Positions 2,802 to 39,012 of a stretch of 40,314 bases of DNA are shown piece by piece; positions within the stretch are counted from its first letter, which is position 1, and every line of letters starts with the position of its first letter. Source of the DNA: a virus (lineage: Duplodnaviria > Heunggongvirae > Uroviricota > Caudoviricetes); IMG/VR virus record IMGVR_UViG_2541047163_000016; one strand, given 5' to 3'. A program made the translations under genes and the position numbers. The notes under the pieces were generated by a model, which saw only the letters and a program-made list of their open reading frames with translations, ran no database searches and was not told where the DNA came from.

Positions 2802-4839
2802 ATTCTGTTACCGCTTTTTTCACTTCCACCACAATGCTGTCAATCAGCACCGGGTAAGTTGCATTTTTTGTGATATCCGTTACGCGGAGTTTGTCCACCG
2901 GGAAAGTTCCTACTGGTGACTGCGTCAGGGTAAACGCGGCACCATCCTGACCATCAATAACCGGAATAACCTGAAGGCTGTTATTTCCTGCAAAACGGAA
3001 GGCCAGCGTATGCCATTCATTATCAAATGCACCAAAGGTTCCCAGTTTCTGGTTATTTGTTGCCACTTTTGCATTGTGGTACATCACATTCAGGTCTTTT
3101 GCGTCTGTCTGGATGTAGAACGATGCCAGCAGATTATTCCCTGCATCCCCTGTCAGGGTGACACCCTGCGGCAGAGAGGAAACCGGCCAGTAAAGCCCCA
3201 TGACATACTGGTTTGCCACCAGGTCGCCAGGTACTTTAAAACGACAACTGATTAAACCACCATTTTTCAGCAGTTCAGCACCAGTACCGGCATCATGATC
3301 CAGATACCAAGATGATTTACCTGTTTCCTTGGTCAGTTTCATTGCCTTACCACCTGTGCCTCCTGCATCACTGATAATTTCAGCTTTACCGCCAGCCGGC
3401 TCCCAGCCCTGGGCTTTCAGATTTCCTTCTGACTCACTGACACGATAAGACAGCAGTGTTGTGGTTACTGCTTCAGTTTCTGAAGGTGACGGCACTGGTG
3501 CTTCAGTTTCAGAAGATGGAACATCGGCTTTTACTGTGGTTCGCCCCGCATGAGTCAGAACTGCCGTGGCCAGACGGTCGGAAATAATCCCACGACGTGC
3601 CCATGAACTGAAATGGCTGGCCCGGTCCGCAGATGTCCAGGTGGCGGCACTGTTACGCCACGTTGAGCCGTAATAACCAATGGATTCAATATCCGGGTCT
3701 TCTGCCGGATTGTTGGTGGGTACATTCGCGTCATTTTCATCTGTCATTAATGGAACGAAATGAATGTTTTTATCTGTTTTGTTTTTGTAGCCGCCATAGA
3801 TTGCCTGGTATGCCGGTTCATTTTTCTGTTTCCAGAAATACGTGGTATCGCCACAAATCCACGGAACGCCAGCAGCACTGCCACCGGTACACTGTTCCGC
3901 CTGTTCAGCCAGGTCTGCGCGGAATTTTTCCACCATCGCCAGAAACAGCGCGGAATGCTCCGTCGGCTTCGCATCAATATCAAACTCGCCCTGCATCCAC
4001 ACCACAGCAAGCAGGCGGTTTTTCGGGTTCTTCGCCAGTGCCGCTTTTGTCCGGCTGATTAAGTCCTTATACAGCGGCTTATCCACACCCCAGCGGGCTG
4101 AGTCCTCTGAAGCACCCGTGCTGTCACTGTACGTGCCGTCAGCACCCGCCGTGAATGCAGAACCACCACGGCAGCAGGGAACCAGCAGAATCCCCGCATC
4201 TGCCGGAATAAACGGCAGCAGTTTTTTGGCAATGTGAAGCCCCTGACCCACGGTGCCATATTGCCCTTTAGCCACATCCGCTTTCGGGTGATTTTTTCCA
4301 CTCATATCCTGCACATCATGCAGACAGTGGTCGGCCAGAATGATGTCGTTATACTGACAGGCTTTACCTCCCGGCGTGACTGTACTGCGACGGGCTAACT
4401 GCATAATACGCGGTTCGGGGCGGTCATATGTCTCCGGCAGTGGCAGACCTTCACCGTAAGCCATACCGTTTGACTGACCAGCAAGAACCACCACGTAATA
4501 CCAGGAAGGGGAGCTGGAAGCAGTTTCATTTCCTGACGGACGGGTATGTGTTTCAGCATTATCCCAGTCTGACGGTTCAGCAGTACCGGCAACATCAGCA
4601 CTTAACGGAATGACCGCACCAATACCCGCTCCGGTAATTTCCACACTCGGATCACCGGATACTGGCCTTACCCACAGGCAATCCCGTGTATTAAAACTGA
4701 TGAGACAGTCAGCAAATGTCATTCCTCCTTTTGTTTCGGCCGGAGGAAAGGGAGCCTCAAGAAATGCCGCTGTACCACCGGAAACTTTAACAGTAAAGTT
4801 TCCGGGCATTGATGATAGTTGAACCCATTTGGACGTCAT
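2800..4839 (-). CDS. Large cargo protein: SASA/SGNH-type carbohydrate O-acetylesterase-like domain with C-terminal beta-sandwich/lectin-like region
   Basis: 679-aa ORF with verified ATG; motif VVLAGQSNGMAYG resembles the GQSN(M) nucleophile motif of sialate O-acetylesterase (SASA) family enzymes; serine/threonine/proline-rich linker (...SETEAPVPSPSETEA...) before a C-terminal ~250-aa domain. Not part of the canonical Mu gene set. Confidence 0.55.
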   Translation of the reverse strand: MTSKWVQLSSMPGNFTVKVSGGTAAFLEAPFPPAETKGGMTFADCLISFNTRDCLWVRPVSGDPSVEITGAGIGAVIPLSADVAGTAEPSDWDNAETHTRPSGNETASSSPSWYYVVVLAGQSNGMAYGEGLPLPETYDRPEPRIMQLARRSTVTPGGKACQYNDIILADHCLHDVQDMSGKNHPKADVAKGQYGTVGQGLHIAKKLLPFIPADAGILLVPCCRGGSAFTAGADGTYSDSTGASEDSARWGVDKPLYKDLISRTKAALAKNPKNRLLAVVWMQGEFDIDAKPTEHSALFLAMVEKFRADLAEQAEQCTGGSAAGVPWICGDTTYFWKQKNEPAYQAIYGGYKNKTDKNIHFVPLMTDENDANVPTNNPAEDPDIESIGYYGSTWRNSAATWTSADRASHFSSWARRGIISDRLATAVLTHAGRTTVKADVPSSETEAPVPSPSETEAVTTTLLSYRVSESEGNLKAQGWEPAGGKAEIISDAGGTGGKAMKLTKETGKSSWYLDHDAGTGAELLKNGGLISCRFKVPGDLVANQYVMGLYWPVSSLPQGVTLTGDAGNNLLASFYIQTDAKDLNVMYHNAKVATNNQKLGTFGAFDNEWHTLAFRFAGNNSLQVIPVIDGQDGAAFTLTQSPVGTFPVDKLRVTDITKNATYPVLIDSIVVEVKKAVTE

Positions 4840-18826: not shown

Positions 18827-19774
18827 TTACAGATAATCCGCGACAACCAGCTCCAGCTTACCCTTCATCTCGTTAGAGACGGTTGCGTTTCCGTCTGCGA
18901 ACAGTTCACGCTCCAGCAGCTGCACCGCCTGTTTTTCCAGCGAGGTGGGGACAACAATATGGGTGGGTTTAATGCCGAGTTTGCGGCCACCGTCAGCGGT
19001 AAATTCGCGCATGGCTGACCAGCCGTGCCACAGTGCATCCAGCGTCAGCGGTGACTGCATCATGTAGGCCATCTGCCAGAAGCCGTAGCCCACATTGCGA
19101 CGGGCGGATGCACCAAACACAAATTCGTTATCGGTGAATGCGCGACCTTCATCGACTTTGGTCTGGGCAACCAGTTCAGCCTTACGGCGATCCTGATAAA
19201 TCAGCGGTTTTACCGCGCGGGAGCAGTCAAGCAGATACCAGGCCGGACCGCTGTAATCAGCCTGTGCGCCGACAGAGCCGGTTTTTGCCACAAACATATT
19301 GCTGACCATCTGCGCATCCCCGGAGCCATCCACTTTGGGGTAAACCGGATGTTCGGTATCAAAGAAGTTCTGACCGTCATAGCAGGCCGCACTGATCCCG
19401 TCACGCAGGGCAGCAAAGACCAGCTCATCCGGTTGTACCGCCGCAGCGCGCCCCATCTCCTGGAACAACGGGGAATAAATACCGAGGTTGTCGTCTTCGA
19501 AGTCATCGCGGCTAATGGCGACAGTGCCTTCAAAAGTTTTGTTCACGATGGCATAGCCATAGGCTTTCATCTTCTCGATGACGCGGGAGCCGATCCACTC
19601 ACGGAACTGCGGGAACTGCCCCAGCCAGCCGTAGGTGTTGGATTTCGATGTGGAGGGCACGGTCATCGCAATTTTTTTATACTGCGACGGGGCCATGGAC
19701 ATCCCGGCCTGAAAATCAGAACGGTAGCCCGTCATCAGGGCTGTGATCATCGCCGGTGTAATCGGGGTAGGCAT
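18827..19774 (-). CDS. Major head (capsid) protein, Mu T-like
   Basis: 315-aa ORF following the I-like gene with TAATG stop/start overlap. Confidence 0.8.
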   Translation of the reverse strand: MPTPITPAMITALMTGYRSDFQAGMSMAPSQYKKIAMTVPSTSKSNTYGWLGQFPQFREWIGSRVIEKMKAYGYAIVNKTFEGTVAISRDDFEDDNLGIYSPLFQEMGRAAAVQPDELVFAALRDGISAACYDGQNFFDTEHPVYPKVDGSGDAQMVSNMFVAKTGSVGAQADYSGPAWYLLDCSRAVKPLIYQDRRKAELVAQTKVDEGRAFTDNEFVFGASARRNVGYGFWQMAYMMQSPLTLDALWHGWSAMREFTADGGRKLGIKPTHIVVPTSLEKQAVQLLERELFADGNATVSNEMKGKLELVVADYL

Positions 19775-20898
19775 TATTGCATTTCCTCTTTCATTTTCAG
19801 GAACTCGGCTTCGGTTTTACCCAGCAGTTTGGCGGCCGCGATATCTTCAGCCGACAGCGCAGCGGTGGCAGTCTTTTTATCCGGCACGGTCACGGTGTCG
19901 GTCTGAAGAGAGGTCAGGGCCGCAACCGGCTGGCGGGCGTCAAGCTGTGCAGAAAGTGCCGCAACGCCAATCTGCCCGCCCAGTTGTTCCAGATAGCCGC
20001 GTTCGCTTTTGAAGATGCGCCCTTCGGATTCAGCCTTGTCCAGCACCTGCTCCAGCGTGGTGCTGCCGTGCTGCGCCGACAGCGCAACGTATTCGGTACG
20101 CAGGGCGTTATACGTTTCAACGGGCACGTATTTCGTCAGATCAATAATGCCGCCAGCCGGTGTGCCTTTTGCGGTTTCCAGCTCTGCCGACAGACTGGCG
20201 ACCTGTGTTTTCAGGTTGTCGTGTGCATCCGCACGGGTTTTGATCCCGGTGAGGGCAGACAGCGCCGCCGTGCCCAGCTCCGGCGTAAATTCGTCACCGT
20301 CAGCCACGGTCAGACCGAGCGCCGTCAGCAACTGGCGTAATTGCTCATTCATGGAGGTATCCTTTAAAGGAGGGTTTAAGGCGTTATAAAGGTCATCCGC
20401 CGACAGCGCGGCGACAGGATTCATGCCGGTCAGACCGGGGTCACCGGTAATAGCCAGCATCCGAAGTTCGACAGGTTCGCCGGTGTTCTCGTCATAGCCA
20501 ATCACCGGTGAAAACCAGGGGAATTCGTTATTACGCAGATGTTCAAGGGCCGGAGGGTTCCACTTCGGGCGCACCTCGAAGCCACGCTCTTCACTGAAGC
20601 GAAAATTCTCCGGTGAGGCCATCACAAAACCGGCAGCCGGTGCCTGATGCCCCTTAATCAGGGTCTGGTGGTTGTAGTCAATTTTCACCGGCTGATTGAG
20701 CGCCACAACCCGGGATACCATGCGCTCAACGGTCGCACGGTTAATCAGCCAGCCCTCGGCCGGTTTTTCCGGGCGACCGTCACGGGCCTTTACCCGACCG
20801 GCTGGCATGATCTGACACCAGTCACCGTCCCCGTCTGCGGACAGGCTGATGGCATTCAGAATGGCATAAGCAAGTTTGGGCGTGTTTTTCGTCTTCAT
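19774..20898 (-). CDS. Head protease/scaffold protein, Mu I-like
   Basis: 374-aa ORF; first gene after a 175-bp intergenic region, as for the Mu I operon. Confidence 0.75.
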   Translation of the reverse strand: MKTKNTPKLAYAILNAISLSADGDGDWCQIMPAGRVKARDGRPEKPAEGWLINRATVERMVSRVVALNQPVKIDYNHQTLIKGHQAPAAGFVMASPENFRFSEERGFEVRPKWNPPALEHLRNNEFPWFSPVIGYDENTGEPVELRMLAITGDPGLTGMNPVAALSADDLYNALNPPLKDTSMNEQLRQLLTALGLTVADGDEFTPELGTAALSALTGIKTRADAHDNLKTQVASLSAELETAKGTPAGGIIDLTKYVPVETYNALRTEYVALSAQHGSTTLEQVLDKAESEGRIFKSERGYLEQLGGQIGVAALSAQLDARQPVAALTSLQTDTVTVPDKKTATAALSAEDIAAAKLLGKTEAEFLKMKEEMQ

Positions 20899-21044
20899 TC
20901 CGGCAGCATAAGCCGGGAATTTTCAGGGCGGGTTTTGCGGGATTTCAGGAAGTGCTTCCAGGGGAAAAATACAAAGGCGCTTCACGCAGATTTTAAAGCC
21001 CGTTAAATACAGGTTAGAAAATCACGACACGCGCCTGAAGGGGG

Positions 21045-28300: not shown

Positions 28301-28801
28301 TCAGACTTTCGGCAAGTCGTAGCGACATAACCATTCATCCGCCGAACGGCGGGCCTCAAGGCCGGGGAGTTTCACCCCCTTTGAATAAATCCAGCGGATA
28401 TACTGCTTACAGGACGCGGGCATCTGCCCGGCATTGATCAGGCGCAGAAGCGTGGAGTTGCGAAAGTTCGTTTCACCGGCCCAGAAGATCCACGAAGCCA
28501 GCGCCACCGTCTGACCACGGGTAAGCGGCACCTGAACACGCCGATCAATGGCCGCAAAGGCCCATTTCATGTCCTTTTCCAGTAGTTCCAGGCATTCTTC
28601 ATCTGTCAGGGTCATACCCGGTTTCACATCCGGGCCGGTATGGCCGTAACAGATGGTGGGTGTACCGGTGGGATCGATATACGTGGAGTTTTCTTTCCCT
28701 TCCCAGTAACCGGTGTAATGCGTGGCAATCGTGAACGTCCCGGCACCGGCCAGAACAAGGGCAATCAGCTTTTTACGCAGTGGTGCGGGGAGTTTTGGCA
28801 T
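28301..28801 (-). CDS. Endolysin, lysozyme (GH24-like) with N-terminal signal-anchor-release-like segment
   Basis: YIDPTGTPTICYGHTG...GMTLTDEECLELLEKDM...VPLTRGQTVAL resembles P22/T4-type lysozymes (recalled); residues 12-27 LIALVLAGAGTFTIAT form a weakly hydrophobic Ala/Gly-rich segment. Confidence 0.85.
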   Translation of the reverse strand: MPKLPAPLRKKLIALVLAGAGTFTIATHYTGYWEGKENSTYIDPTGTPTICYGHTGPDVKPGMTLTDEECLELLEKDMKWAFAAIDRRVQVPLTRGQTVALASWIFWAGETNFRNSTLLRLINAGQMPASCKQYIRWIYSKGVKLPGLEARRSADEWLCRYDLPKV

Positions 28802-28802
28802 T

Positions 28803-28840
28803 GTTACGCTGTCTCATGATGTTCTCTGAGTCAGCGTAAC
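28803..28840. promoter_or_regulatory. Perfect 9-bp inverted repeat GTTACGCTG-N20-CAGCGTAAC at the 5' end of the lysozyme gene
   Basis: Arms at 28803-28811 and 28832-28840, within the 71-bp gap between the mor stop and the lysozyme start, ending 1 nt from the lysozyme ATG. Confidence 0.4.
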
Positions 28841-28872
28841 GGTGAAGGAGAGGCGGCAGGCTTTGCGGAATA

Positions 28873-29298
28873 TCAGAAAAGTGGCGGTTGCGTTCTTACC
28901 AGATGCAGACGGCGCTGTTCGCGTATGACGGTATAAATCTGGGTTTCTGACATCCGGTAATGGCGGCGAAGGGATTCAATTTTCTCGCCCCGGTCCCAGC
29001 GCGAAAATATCTCATTGTTTCGCAGCTCGGCAAAGAGAGATTCCCCGACCGGCAGGTAATAACCCCGTCCGCCCATATAGGCGGCCTGAGCCGCAGCCAC
29101 CTTGCGTGCCAGTTTACCGGCCAGTACCGGCTCAATCCCCTGACGCTGAAGTTCTGCGCCGGTGACTTCAACCAGTTCTGACAGGGTCCGCGGCCAGTTC
29201 TTTTTGAGAACATCATCAGGGATGTCATCAAGGCGGTCGATAAGGGCGTGCAGTTGCTCACTGTCACCACCAAACATGCTCATCTGAGTTTCTGCCAT
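28873..29298 (-). CDS. mor: Mor/C-family transcriptional activator
   Basis: ATG preceded by GGAGG; C-terminal region ...LPVGESLFAELRNNEIFSRWDRGEKIESLRRHYRMSETQIYTVIREQRR parallels the recalled Mu Mor C-terminal helix-turn-helix region. Confidence 0.75.
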   Translation of the reverse strand: MAETQMSMFGGDSEQLHALIDRLDDIPDDVLKKNWPRTLSELVEVTGAELQRQGIEPVLAGKLARKVAAAQAAYMGGRGYYLPVGESLFAELRNNEIFSRWDRGEKIESLRRHYRMSETQIYTVIREQRRLHLVRTQPPLF

Positions 29299-29367
29299 AT
29301 CAGCCTCCGGTTCTCGCGTTCCCGGTAAGTTTAAAATAAAAATCCCGCGTTGTGGCGGGATTTGGAG

Positions 29368-29877
29368 TTAACGGGGAAGTGATTTTTCATACTGCCTGCA
29401 AACGGCGTCATACCCCATCAGCGTGCGTTCGGGCATTCCCATCGCGGCCAGCATTTTGCGGCGGTGCCATCGCTTGAGACGCTCCAGCACATCTGAGGCC
29501 AGGGCGGGGTGTTGCTCCAGCCACTGCCAGTTTGCCACACCTTCGCCGCCGTTCTGCGCGGCCGTCTGCGATTTCACCCAGCGGTTAAGGGCGGTTTCCG
29601 CACCATCGGTGATAAAGCCCTGCCGGTGCATCACCTTCCAGATGGCGCGAATTTTGGCGGTCACCGTACCCGGTTTTAAGGCCCGGTTAACCGGGTTCTG
29701 ACGCACTTTAAAACCGCGTTTTTTGAAAACATCCAGCACGCGGGATAACTCATCCGGTGACATATCCCGGCAGCTGGTTTTGCCGGTAGCTGCCAGCAGC
29801 GCGGATGTATAAGTCTCATCATCCAGGGCAAGCTCGCGCTTTGCCACATGAATGGCGGATATCAGTTTTCCTCTCAT
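29368..29877 (-). CDS. gemA: GemA-like protein (Mu gp16 family)
   Basis: 169-aa ORF immediately upstream of mor, as gemA is in Mu; AAGGT before the ATG. Assignment mainly by synteny and size. Confidence 0.55.
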   Translation of the reverse strand: MRGKLISAIHVAKRELALDDETYTSALLAATGKTSCRDMSPDELSRVLDVFKKRGFKVRQNPVNRALKPGTVTAKIRAIWKVMHRQGFITDGAETALNRWVKSQTAAQNGGEGVANWQWLEQHPALASDVLERLKRWHRRKMLAAMGMPERTLMGYDAVCRQYEKSLPR

Positions 29878-31066: not shown

Positions 31067-31374
31067 TCCGGTAAAGCTGAAATATGGCACCAGTGCGTCA
31101 CCTGTCCGTCCTCATCTTCAAGGCAGGCTCCGGTTTCTTCATCAATAAAAAAGCCTTCATACCCCATATGGCCGATGCGCAGTTCCTGTTGGTCACCATA
31201 CTGAACAATCAGCACGACAGCCTCCATATCAGGCGGGAAAGCATCATTCAGTGAATGCCAGGGATAACCGCGCAAATCCCCGAAATAAACACCGGTCAGC
31301 GTTCCGCCACAGACCGGCATTCCGACGGCACACACAAGGGGTTCATCTGATTCAACAAATAATGTCGTTATCAT
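31063..31374 (-). CDS. Hypothetical early protein
   Basis: 103-aa acidic ORF with verified ATG. Confidence 0.5.
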   Translation of the reverse strand: MITTLFVESDEPLVCAVGMPVCGGTLTGVYFGDLRGYPWHSLNDAFPPDMEAVVLIVQYGDQQELRIGHMGYEGFFIDEETGACLEDEDGQVTHWCHISALPE

Positions 31375-31922
31375 GGCATTAATTCCCGTAATACAACATC
31401 TTCGGCAGTCCGACGACGGTGATAAATAAAACTCACCGTGCCCTCGGATAATTCAAATTTCTCGCCGATTTCCCTAAAGGTAAGACGCCGTGGTGATTCA
31501 GCATCCCGTAATTCACGAATAAGACGAACATCATCGTCAGGTATGCGGGTGAAGGGCAGCAACTCTCCGTATTTTTTCATGCTTACGCCAATATATCGCG
31601 CCCGATTGTGGACAGAATCCCGGTCTCGCCCCAGATATTCTCCTATTTGCTTACCGGTCATTGTTCTGGCATTTTTTCGGATAAATTTATCTTCATCAGG
31701 TTTAAATCTGAGGCGTTTGCATTTGAGCAACTCCGGGTAAGTACCGCGTAATAAAACAATCCGGTTATGTACACCCCAGAAACTTCTTTTTATCCTGACA
31801 GCAATATCCTTAACCGGGGTGGATGGATAAAGCGCAATCAGCAGCGCATCTTCTTCAGGTGTCCATGCGCGAACATGAGCGGGTGCACGGCCTTTTCTCC
31901 CCATGGGTTGTAATATCATCAT
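31371..31922 (-). CDS. Putative DNA-binding protein with two Myb/SANT-like repeats and a C-terminal helix-turn-helix
   Basis: Repeat 1 WTPEEDALLIALY...FWGVHNR; repeat 2 FKPDEDKFIRKNAR...DSVHNRARY; C-terminus LTFREIGEKFELSEGTVSFIYHRR resembles sigma-70 region 4/LuxR-type HTH. Confidence 0.45.
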   Translation of the reverse strand: MMILQPMGRKGRAPAHVRAWTPEEDALLIALYPSTPVKDIAVRIKRSFWGVHNRIVLLRGTYPELLKCKRLRFKPDEDKFIRKNARTMTGKQIGEYLGRDRDSVHNRARYIGVSMKKYGELLPFTRIPDDDVRLIRELRDAESPRRLTFREIGEKFELSEGTVSFIYHRRRTAEDVVLRELMP

Positions 31923-38596: not shown

Positions 38597-38845
38597 TCAT
38601 GACGCCTTTCTCATATAGCTCTTAACCTGGTATCGACTGGGCCAGATTTCTTCAGGCGATACCCCAAGAGCATCAGCAATTATTTGCTGATACGGTCGGC
38701 AAGGAGTACGTAATACGCTTTTCAGCGAATCCCTGCTGTAACCAGCCTTTAAAGATAAAGAGCGCAGTGATAAGCCAGCCATGTGTAAGCGCGCCTTGAT
38801 GATTTCAGGCGGCCAATCGTGATCTGAAACTTCTCTTCTACTCAT
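38597..38845 (-). CDS. ner: Ner-like DNA-binding protein
   Basis: ...LSLRSLSLKAGYSRDSLKSVL...QQIIADALGVSPEEIWPSRYQ parallels the recalled Mu Ner/Nlp family sequence; first gene of the early operon, divergent from the repressor. Confidence 0.85.
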   Translation of the reverse strand: MSRREVSDHDWPPEIIKARLHMAGLSLRSLSLKAGYSRDSLKSVLRTPCRPYQQIIADALGVSPEEIWPSRYQVKSYMRKAS

Positions 38846-39012
38846 ACTTCCTCTATTCTAAAAAGTTACCCGCGCGGATATTCGTGCGGATATCTGTACG
38901 GGTAAATAATAGAACAAACAAAAGAACCAAATCAAGGTATTTTGTTCTTTTTATTCTTTGCGGTGTTTTTGTTATTAATATCAATAAGATAAATACAAAG
39001 GAACCTGAGAGC
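38846..39012. promoter_or_regulatory. Divergent early control region (operators and promoters for repressor and ner-A-B)
   Basis: 167-bp gap between divergent starts; direct repeats GCGGATAT at 38874-38881 and 38886-38893; 7-bp inverted repeat TTACCCG (38866-38872) / CGGGTAA (38899-38905); AT-rich tract 38940-38990. Confidence 0.5.

Follow-up and report, generated by a model that had tools for sequence, protein, structure and literature searches.

The analysed DNA (the window, meaning the whole stretch of 40,314 nucleotides) is a Mu-like prophage of the Sp18 type from E. coli O157, in which the phage genes lie on the minus strand. A matching Mu-like prophage was found in 231 of 5,426 complete E. 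coli genomes, with O157, O111 and O103 predominating, and two Stx-phage records also contained the phage of the window, where it is described as an "inserted Mu-like phage". The RefSeq copy of this prophage is inserted within gsiA, its gene order is the usual one of Mu and both Com and Mom are encoded.

The locus of interest comprises a gene for a transcription activator of the Mor/C family (28873..29298, minus strand; 141 aa; Pfam Mor PF08765, E = 1e-31) followed by an endolysin gene (28301..28801, minus strand; 166 aa; phage lysozyme family, Pfam PF00959, E = 6e-37) whose product carries an N-terminal SAR-like segment. The first-pass annotation had labelled the activator gene mor, a name that is apt for the family and misleading for the individual gene, as identity to Mu C was 39% over 97% of the length versus 27% to Mu Mor; by sequence comparison this gene is closer to C, the late activator, than to Mor. 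No second Mor gene or Pm region adjoining the C-like activator gene was seen and the phage seems to have a single Mor/C-family gene, while a 183-aa early-region protein (31371-31922, minus strand) with weak matches to sigma-70 region 4 and to other helix-turn-helix domains is a candidate regulator. The endolysin was 39% identical to Mu gp22, which is annotated and published as a SAR endolysin (PMC9239132), and because this alignment begins at residue 1 the start codon at 28801 can be regarded as sound. Upstream of the activator gene, an intrinsic terminator hairpin was called by the terminator scan between the gemA-like and C-like genes (29340..29363, minus strand; AAATCCCGC-CACAAC-GCGGGATTT followed by a T-run). 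It is kept in relatives at 84% identity, and in L067 (about 2440-2475) the outer pairs are altered on both sides. This call at 29363-29340 was the only one in the region, and none was made in the gap that separates the activator stop codon from the endolysin gene.

That gap contains an inverted repeat (28803..28840, minus strand). A 9-bp inverted repeat with a 20-nt interval had been reported here and was confirmed, with GTTACGCTG (28803-28811) and CAGCGTAAC (28832-28840) both present 20 nt apart, and our analysis indicated that the repeat is longer, having 14-nt arms that are complementary at 13 of 14 positions (93%), a single A:A mismatch and a loop of 10 nt. As an RNA hairpin it consists of a 5' arm at 28840-28827 (GUUACGCUGACUCA), a loop at 28826-28817 and a 3' arm at 28816-28803 (UGAGACAGCGUAAC). 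The repeat does end 1 nt from the endolysin ATG, as had been stated, because its last position is 28803 and the single base 28802 precedes the ATG at 28801-28799 (minus strand), but it does not fill the intergenic gap and covers 38 of the 71 nt, or about half. Relative to the endolysin AUG the stem spans positions -2 to -39, including the weak Shine-Dalgarno region. The loop also holds an AUG (28817) that opens a 14-codon upstream reading frame (28773-28817, minus strand) ending at a UAA at 28773 and overlapping the endolysin start out of frame; this AUG is retained in close relatives and missing in L067.

Folding of the 44-nt hairpin RNA gave -20.1 kcal/mol versus a shuffle mean of -5.4 (z = -7.2), with none of 200 shuffles as stable, and in a 111-nt context the folding z was -3.8. 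Structure at gene starts was compared over the 35 prophage genes with mappable starts, among which the endolysin segment from -62 to +9 was the most structured (z = -3.7; median -0.56). The second most structured was the start of a ner-like helix-turn-helix gene in the early operator region (about 38845-38907, minus strand; z = -3.3). In a comparison with Rfam 15, nothing in the window reached the gathering score, and 28700-28950 gave no match at E <= 1. Elsewhere in the window the 9-mer arm occurred at chance level (11 matches with at most one mismatch versus 7.1 expected), and the suggestion that other late operons carry the same motif as a shared operator was accordingly rejected. A perfect 12-bp inverted repeat with a 4-nt loop (CCGGAAACTTTA/TAAAGTTTCCGG) was also recorded at 4778-4805.

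Sequence features on the 5' side of the repeat resemble those of an activator-dependent late promoter. A predicted C-like activator box (28859..28881, minus strand) was recognized by its conservation, by a second copy in the window and by its likeness to Mu, and consists of an imperfect dyad CTTTTCTGATATTCCGCAAAG (28881-28861; 7 of 10 pairs, centred at about -45 from the predicted start) with a right-hand 10-mer CCGCAAAGCC (28868-28859). The box and the activator stop codon overlap. The box is followed by a pyrimidine-rich spacer of 20 nt (28839..28858, minus strand), which varies in sequence and is fixed in length, and then, exactly 20 nt past the box 10-mer, by the -10-like hexamer TACGCT (28833..28838, minus strand) of a predicted C-dependent late lysis promoter equivalent to Plys. 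As TACGCT (28838-28833) falls within the 5' arm of the hairpin, the predicted late lysis promoter appears to sit inside the inverted repeat. TACGCT matches TATAAT at 3 of 6 positions, a weakness that is expected because the promoter would be activator-dependent, and no match to a -35 hexamer was found, GCCTGC occupying the expected place. A sigma-70 consensus scan of 28500-29500 also returned no promoter, as expected of an activator-dependent promoter; such a scan is uninformative for promoters without a -35. From the hexamer position and comparison with Mu Plys we infer a late transcript start at about 28826 (28824..28828, minus strand), since the box and the 20-nt spacing set the -10 hexamer at TACGCT and the seventh nucleotide after it is 28826, the first base of the loop. 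This start sits in TCAGAGAA, an 8-mer that also occurs just downstream of the Mu Plys -10. A transcript that begins at the first loop base would be without the 5' arm, and its predicted folding shows no structure.

A search with the invariant block of the box identified a second late promoter of the same type, equivalent to PI (20905..20950, minus strand; TCCTGAAATCCCGCAAAACC, 20 nt, TATGCT). Its box copy (20931-20950) has the same strand orientation and precedes the protease/scaffold gene I, whose N-terminus agrees with Mu gpI. The late mRNA of gene I is predicted to be leaderless or nearly so, because TATGCT ends 6 nt before the gene I ATG (20898). The pattern CTGAWATYCCGCAAA-N23-TAYGCT occurred at two sites in the window against 0 expected by chance, namely CTGATATTCCGCAAA-N23-TACGCT before the endolysin and CTGAAATCCCGCAAA-N23-TATGCT before gene I, with identical spacing, and a looser pattern (box, 20-nt spacer, TANNCT) recovered the same two sites alone. 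A box with a 20-nt spacer and TAnnCT was not found for the P and com/mom operons (upstream of the baseplate gene P and in 1560-1800), whereas Mu has C-dependent promoters at both (AF083977 features). The upstream region of com in the window holds many GATC sites. At 20898-20950 (minus strand) a small repeat, ATTCC(C)GGC/GCCGGAAT, brackets TATGCT and overlaps the gene I ATG, with z about 0, which is not significant. The box, the 20-nt interval and TAYGCT together provide a late-promoter map for this prophage group.

At the Mu late promoters a -10 hexamer is present without a -35, and C binds at -43.5 (PMC2582627; PMC4461284). To place the Mu -10 hexamers, the 67-nt promoter features of AF083977 were compared by alignment. 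In all four late-promoter features of this record (citing PMID 2522923), CCATAAYCCC lies exactly 20 nt upstream of TAGACT, CAAACT, TATCCT or TAAGAT. An alignment that paired the window and Mu boxes by their common AATCCCGCA was rejected owing to an 8-nt conflict in spacing, while aligning CCGCAAAGCC with Mu CCATAATCCC restored the exact 20-nt spacing at all sites. A further box-like sequence, TCCAAATCCC in the 5' arm of the terminator at 29340-29363, was considered as a promoter box for the activator gene and set aside because its spacing to good hexamers is wrong.

Hairpins were also present at those Mu late promoters that sit immediately ahead of a start codon (PI, z = -4.3; Pmom/com, z = -2.3; Plys, z about -1.5) and absent from the intragenic PP (z = +0.2). 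As PI, com and lys have hairpins and the intragenic promoter has none, the hairpin would be tied to start codons and not to promoter DNA as such. The repeat at Mu PI (AF083977, our L121, about 2019-2060) is a 7-bp perfect repeat, CTGCTCA/TGAGCAG, that begins 2 nt past the -10, and the repeat at Pmom (about 19735-19790 of the same record) is a 10-bp perfect repeat, GCGAATTGAT/ATCAATTCGC, that encloses the com Shine-Dalgarno sequence and AUG. The literature examined on Mu late promoters, lysis and late transcription makes no mention of such a hairpin, nor of the PI and Pmom repeats.

The comparison was extended to diverged Mu-like lineages by scanning viral contigs with an alignment of C-family proteins, which yielded 80 loci; the set was then enlarged with loci from Mu, a Pasteurella phage and four Pasteurellaceae genomes. 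In nearly all of these an endolysin or amidase gene follows the activator gene after 71-126 nt. Hexamers were picked by eye in 20 representative loci without reference to the box, and a box-like 10-mer was then present exactly 20 nt upstream of the hexamer in 20 of 20, Mu Plys with TAGACT included (examples from relatives are CCGTAATCCC, CCGGAATCCC, TGCAAATCCC, TAATAACCCC and TCGCAAACT). Every one of these loci has a hairpin with the hexamer inside or at its 5' arm; the 3' arm stops 1-6 nt short of the start codon and holds Shine-Dalgarno-like bases in every lineage. Overall, about 12 diverged Mu-like lineages retain a hairpin at this place with unrelated arm sequences, loops of about 4-20 nt and z values from -0.7 to -7. 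In one relative (L077, about 3026-3592) the endolysin has a run of PKS repeats (PKSPKSPKS...) inserted just past its N-terminus.

Among closer relatives, in which the activator is 84-99% identical, the gap consists of an invariant block CTTTTCTGATATTCCGCAAA that spans the activator stop codon, a variable spacer and the invariant repeat. In 11 sequence variants taken from E. coli and Shigella the 26 paired bases were all unchanged, and the only two variable positions of the repeat were the mismatch base and one loop base, whereas the 20-nt spacer varied at at least 8 positions among the same relatives and the box was fully conserved. Part of the conservation of the arms could stem from the promoter, in the case of the 5' arm, and from a general conservation of the endolysin gene at its 5' end. 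Arms were identical in all alignable relatives of the window type, with no compensatory substitution among them, and for this reason the support across lineages takes the form of a recurring structure and not of column-wise covariation. A word-indexed protein search for intermediate relatives returned matches that were all at least 64% identical. Scanning genome contigs with the single activator protein gave no match, the same scan with the alignment of C-family proteins gave four Pasteurellaceae loci only, and a metagenome scan recovered only the same clusters at 84-99% identity.

We propose that the hairpin separates two classes of endolysin transcript and that translation would proceed from late-promoter RNA only, a reading to which we assign a probability of roughly 0.6 from sequence and folding predictions. 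Polymerase transcribing the C-like gene would run on into the endolysin gene, because the 71-nt gap is without a terminator, and the long RNA so produced would carry both arms, with the -20 kcal/mol stem hiding the ribosome-binding region and blocking ribosome start. Ribosomes terminating on the activator gene should not open this stem, because the stop codon lies 32 nt upstream of the 5' arm. The intrinsic terminator at 29340-29363, which precedes the activator gene, may affect how much of this long RNA is made. As the activator accumulates it would bind the box at 28881-28859 and switch on the -35-less promoter whose TACGCT lies in the 5' arm, and the late RNAs starting at about 28826 would then lack this arm and possess an unstructured, translatable 25-nt leader. 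The SAR endolysin, which is Sec-exported and needs no holin to cross the membrane, would thus be made from late-promoter RNA only. The hairpin probably forms only on RNA reading in from the activator gene, and its role would be to prevent endolysin from being made too early.

Predicted folding agreed with this proposal. The predicted late leader (28826-28799, 28 nt) folds at 0 kcal/mol, a start 7 nt after the hexamer removes 13 of the 15 base pairs predicted over -20 to +3 in the window, and the mean unpaired probability of -18 to +3 is predicted to rise from 0.25 in the long RNA to 0.55 in the late RNA, a result that stands wherever the start is set between 5 and 9 nt past the hexamer. In lineages L073, L080 and L087 accessibility was predicted to improve only a little. 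What the sequence shows is the repeat with its predicted stability, the recurring arrangement of box, 20-nt spacer and hexamer, the lack of a terminator and the equivalent hairpins of diverged relatives, whereas we infer where exactly the late RNA starts, that read-through RNA exists and in what amount, and that translation is blocked. The first-pass annotation had offered an RNA reading of the repeat as a stem-loop over the ribosome-binding region, and in silico the stem is strong (-20.1 kcal/mol) and does cover that region; the part of that reading that would not hold is its application to the late mRNA, which would not carry the stem, since the predicted -10 lies in the 5' arm. Control would then be exerted through which of the two RNAs is translatable and not by tuning the late mRNA.

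An alternative that we consider unlikely is that the late lysis mRNA itself bears the whole hairpin, transcribed from a promoter further upstream, with the stem throttling or timing translation and perhaps being opened by a factor as Com does at Mu mom. A strong stem abutting the AUG would suit such control, and since Com and Mom are present in the prophage, opening a stem with the help of a factor is not without precedent in this phage family. A promoter further upstream could be sought in GATATT (28874-28869), which is readable as a -10, but this hexamer is part of the conserved box, and the second promoter has GAAATC in its place, which is not -10-like, while the fixed 20-nt interval between box and hexamer at the 20 loci and at the mapped Mu promoters puts the -10 at TACGCT. 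Additionally, barring an opener, expression of this essential lysis gene would be all but abolished by a stem of -20 kcal/mol over a weak ribosome-binding site.

The hairpin might instead serve the upstream activator mRNA as a 3'-end stabiliser, pause site or weak terminator, in which case it would overlap the promoter and the ribosome-binding site simply because the gap is compact. In Mu, a terminator is annotated directly after C, and in the Pasteurellaceae relatives the equivalent hairpins are followed by 5-7 U and look like intrinsic terminators, so that the ancestral role could be the stopping of read-through and not a translational block. An intrinsic terminator is defined by a G+C-rich stem and a U-run, whereas the stem in the window is followed by AACAAUGCC with no U-run and was not called by the terminator scan. 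Nor would a 3'-end element require a 3' arm that everywhere lies 1-6 nt from the ATG and contains Shine-Dalgarno-like bases. We rate this explanation as improbable when taken by itself; a 3'-end or terminator role and translational occlusion may coexist.

The repeat had also been read at the DNA level, as a site for a dimeric activator or repressor. A DNA element here would be an operator for a dimeric repressor over the -10 and start, or a cruciform-prone sequence affecting promoter opening, and the repeat does reach from about -14 to +25 at the predicted promoter, where operators classically lie, at a type of promoter (Mu Plys) where C acts on open-complex formation (PMC4461284). Against it, the motif has no second copy in the window, a separate conserved box is present at 28881-28859, the arms of relatives are unrelated in sequence, and the analysis yielded no candidate for a late-gene repressor. 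For a dimeric helix-turn-helix protein, a site of 38 bp with a 10-bp centre would be atypical, and the intragenic Mu PP lacks such a repeat. Because arm sequences and loop lengths differ freely among relatives, an RNA structure fits better than a protein site, and we regard a DNA-level element as quite improbable. Finally, a functionless chance palindrome is very improbable, for while about 20 inverted repeats of at least 12 nt occur in the 40-kb window, this one has z = -7.2, lies at the most structured of the 35 gene starts tested, recurs in about 12 diverged lineages and has paired bases that stay invariant while the adjoining spacer varies.

If the proposed separation of transcript classes is correct, it would explain how the phage avoids making endolysin from activator mRNA despite the lack of a terminator between the two genes. 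Whether the design is family-wide is a more tentative matter: each activator-dependent late promoter of Mu-like phages that directly precedes a start codon (lys, I, com) may be embedded in a hairpin that silences, or in the Pasteurellaceae terminates, upstream RNA, which we hold to be possible with the odds somewhat against it. In that event lysis and morphogenesis genes would be insulated from early and middle phage transcription, and from host read-through in a randomly inserted prophage. The phage of the window would rely most on its hairpin under this family-wide design, because it has no terminator after the activator gene and has the strongest hairpin. It is important to note that the finding is a prediction and not a new principle, as the device is already known in kind from T4 and IS10; if correct, it would extend this control device to transposable phages, including the Sp18-type prophage of many E. 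coli O157 and other Shiga-toxin-producing strains.

In comparison to Mu Plys, the locus has the same succession of activator and endolysin genes, a partial-dyad box about 44 nt upstream of the start, no -35, a box 10-mer exactly 20 nt upstream of TAnnCT, the shared TCAGAGAA at the start region and, as in Mu, a further promoter of the same type before gene I. It differs in that the activator is only 39% identical to C, the box reads CCGCAAAGCC instead of CCATAATCCC and overlaps the activator stop codon, no terminator lies between the genes where Mu has one, and the hairpin is far stronger (-20 kcal/mol and z about -6 to -7, versus z about -1.5 at Mu Plys). The Com/mom system of Mu belongs to the same phage family and likewise has a start region hidden by a stem-loop; there, the Com protein binds beside the stem and opens a single class of transcript, whereas here the position of the promoter is predicted to suffice and no factor would be needed.

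The closest parallel in arrangement is gene e of T4, where early read-through RNA folds over and blocks the translation initiation region and the late promoters are situated in DNA that specifies the 5' strand of this structure (PMC3014915, citing McPheeters et al. 1986), and the same design has been described for T4 soc, 49 and I-TevI (PMC3014915). In T4, and as predicted in the present phage, the gene for a lysis enzyme is read by upstream-initiated RNA with a hairpin, and the late promoter lies in DNA of the 5' strand. The phages are unrelated, one being lytic and T4-type and the other temperate, transposable and Mu-like. The T4 late promoter TATAAATA is read by gp55/gp33 with the sliding clamp, whereas the promoter here is predicted to be of the sigma-70 type without a -35 and activated by a Mor/C protein, and T4 lysozyme is cytoplasmic and holin-dependent whereas the endolysin of the window is of the SAR type. 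At the present locus this T4-type gating is predicted from nucleotide sequence and computed folding.

A comparable arrangement also occurs in the insertion sequences IS10 and IS50, where translation of transposase in read-through transcripts is reportedly subject to 'fold-back inhibition'. In these elements the incoming RNA has an extra upstream segment that pairs with the gene start, while transcription from the element's own promoter begins within the paired segment, and these transcripts therefore escape. The device there shields transposase from host promoters, whereas in the phage of the window the incoming RNA would be the phage's own activator mRNA and the protected gene would be the endolysin.
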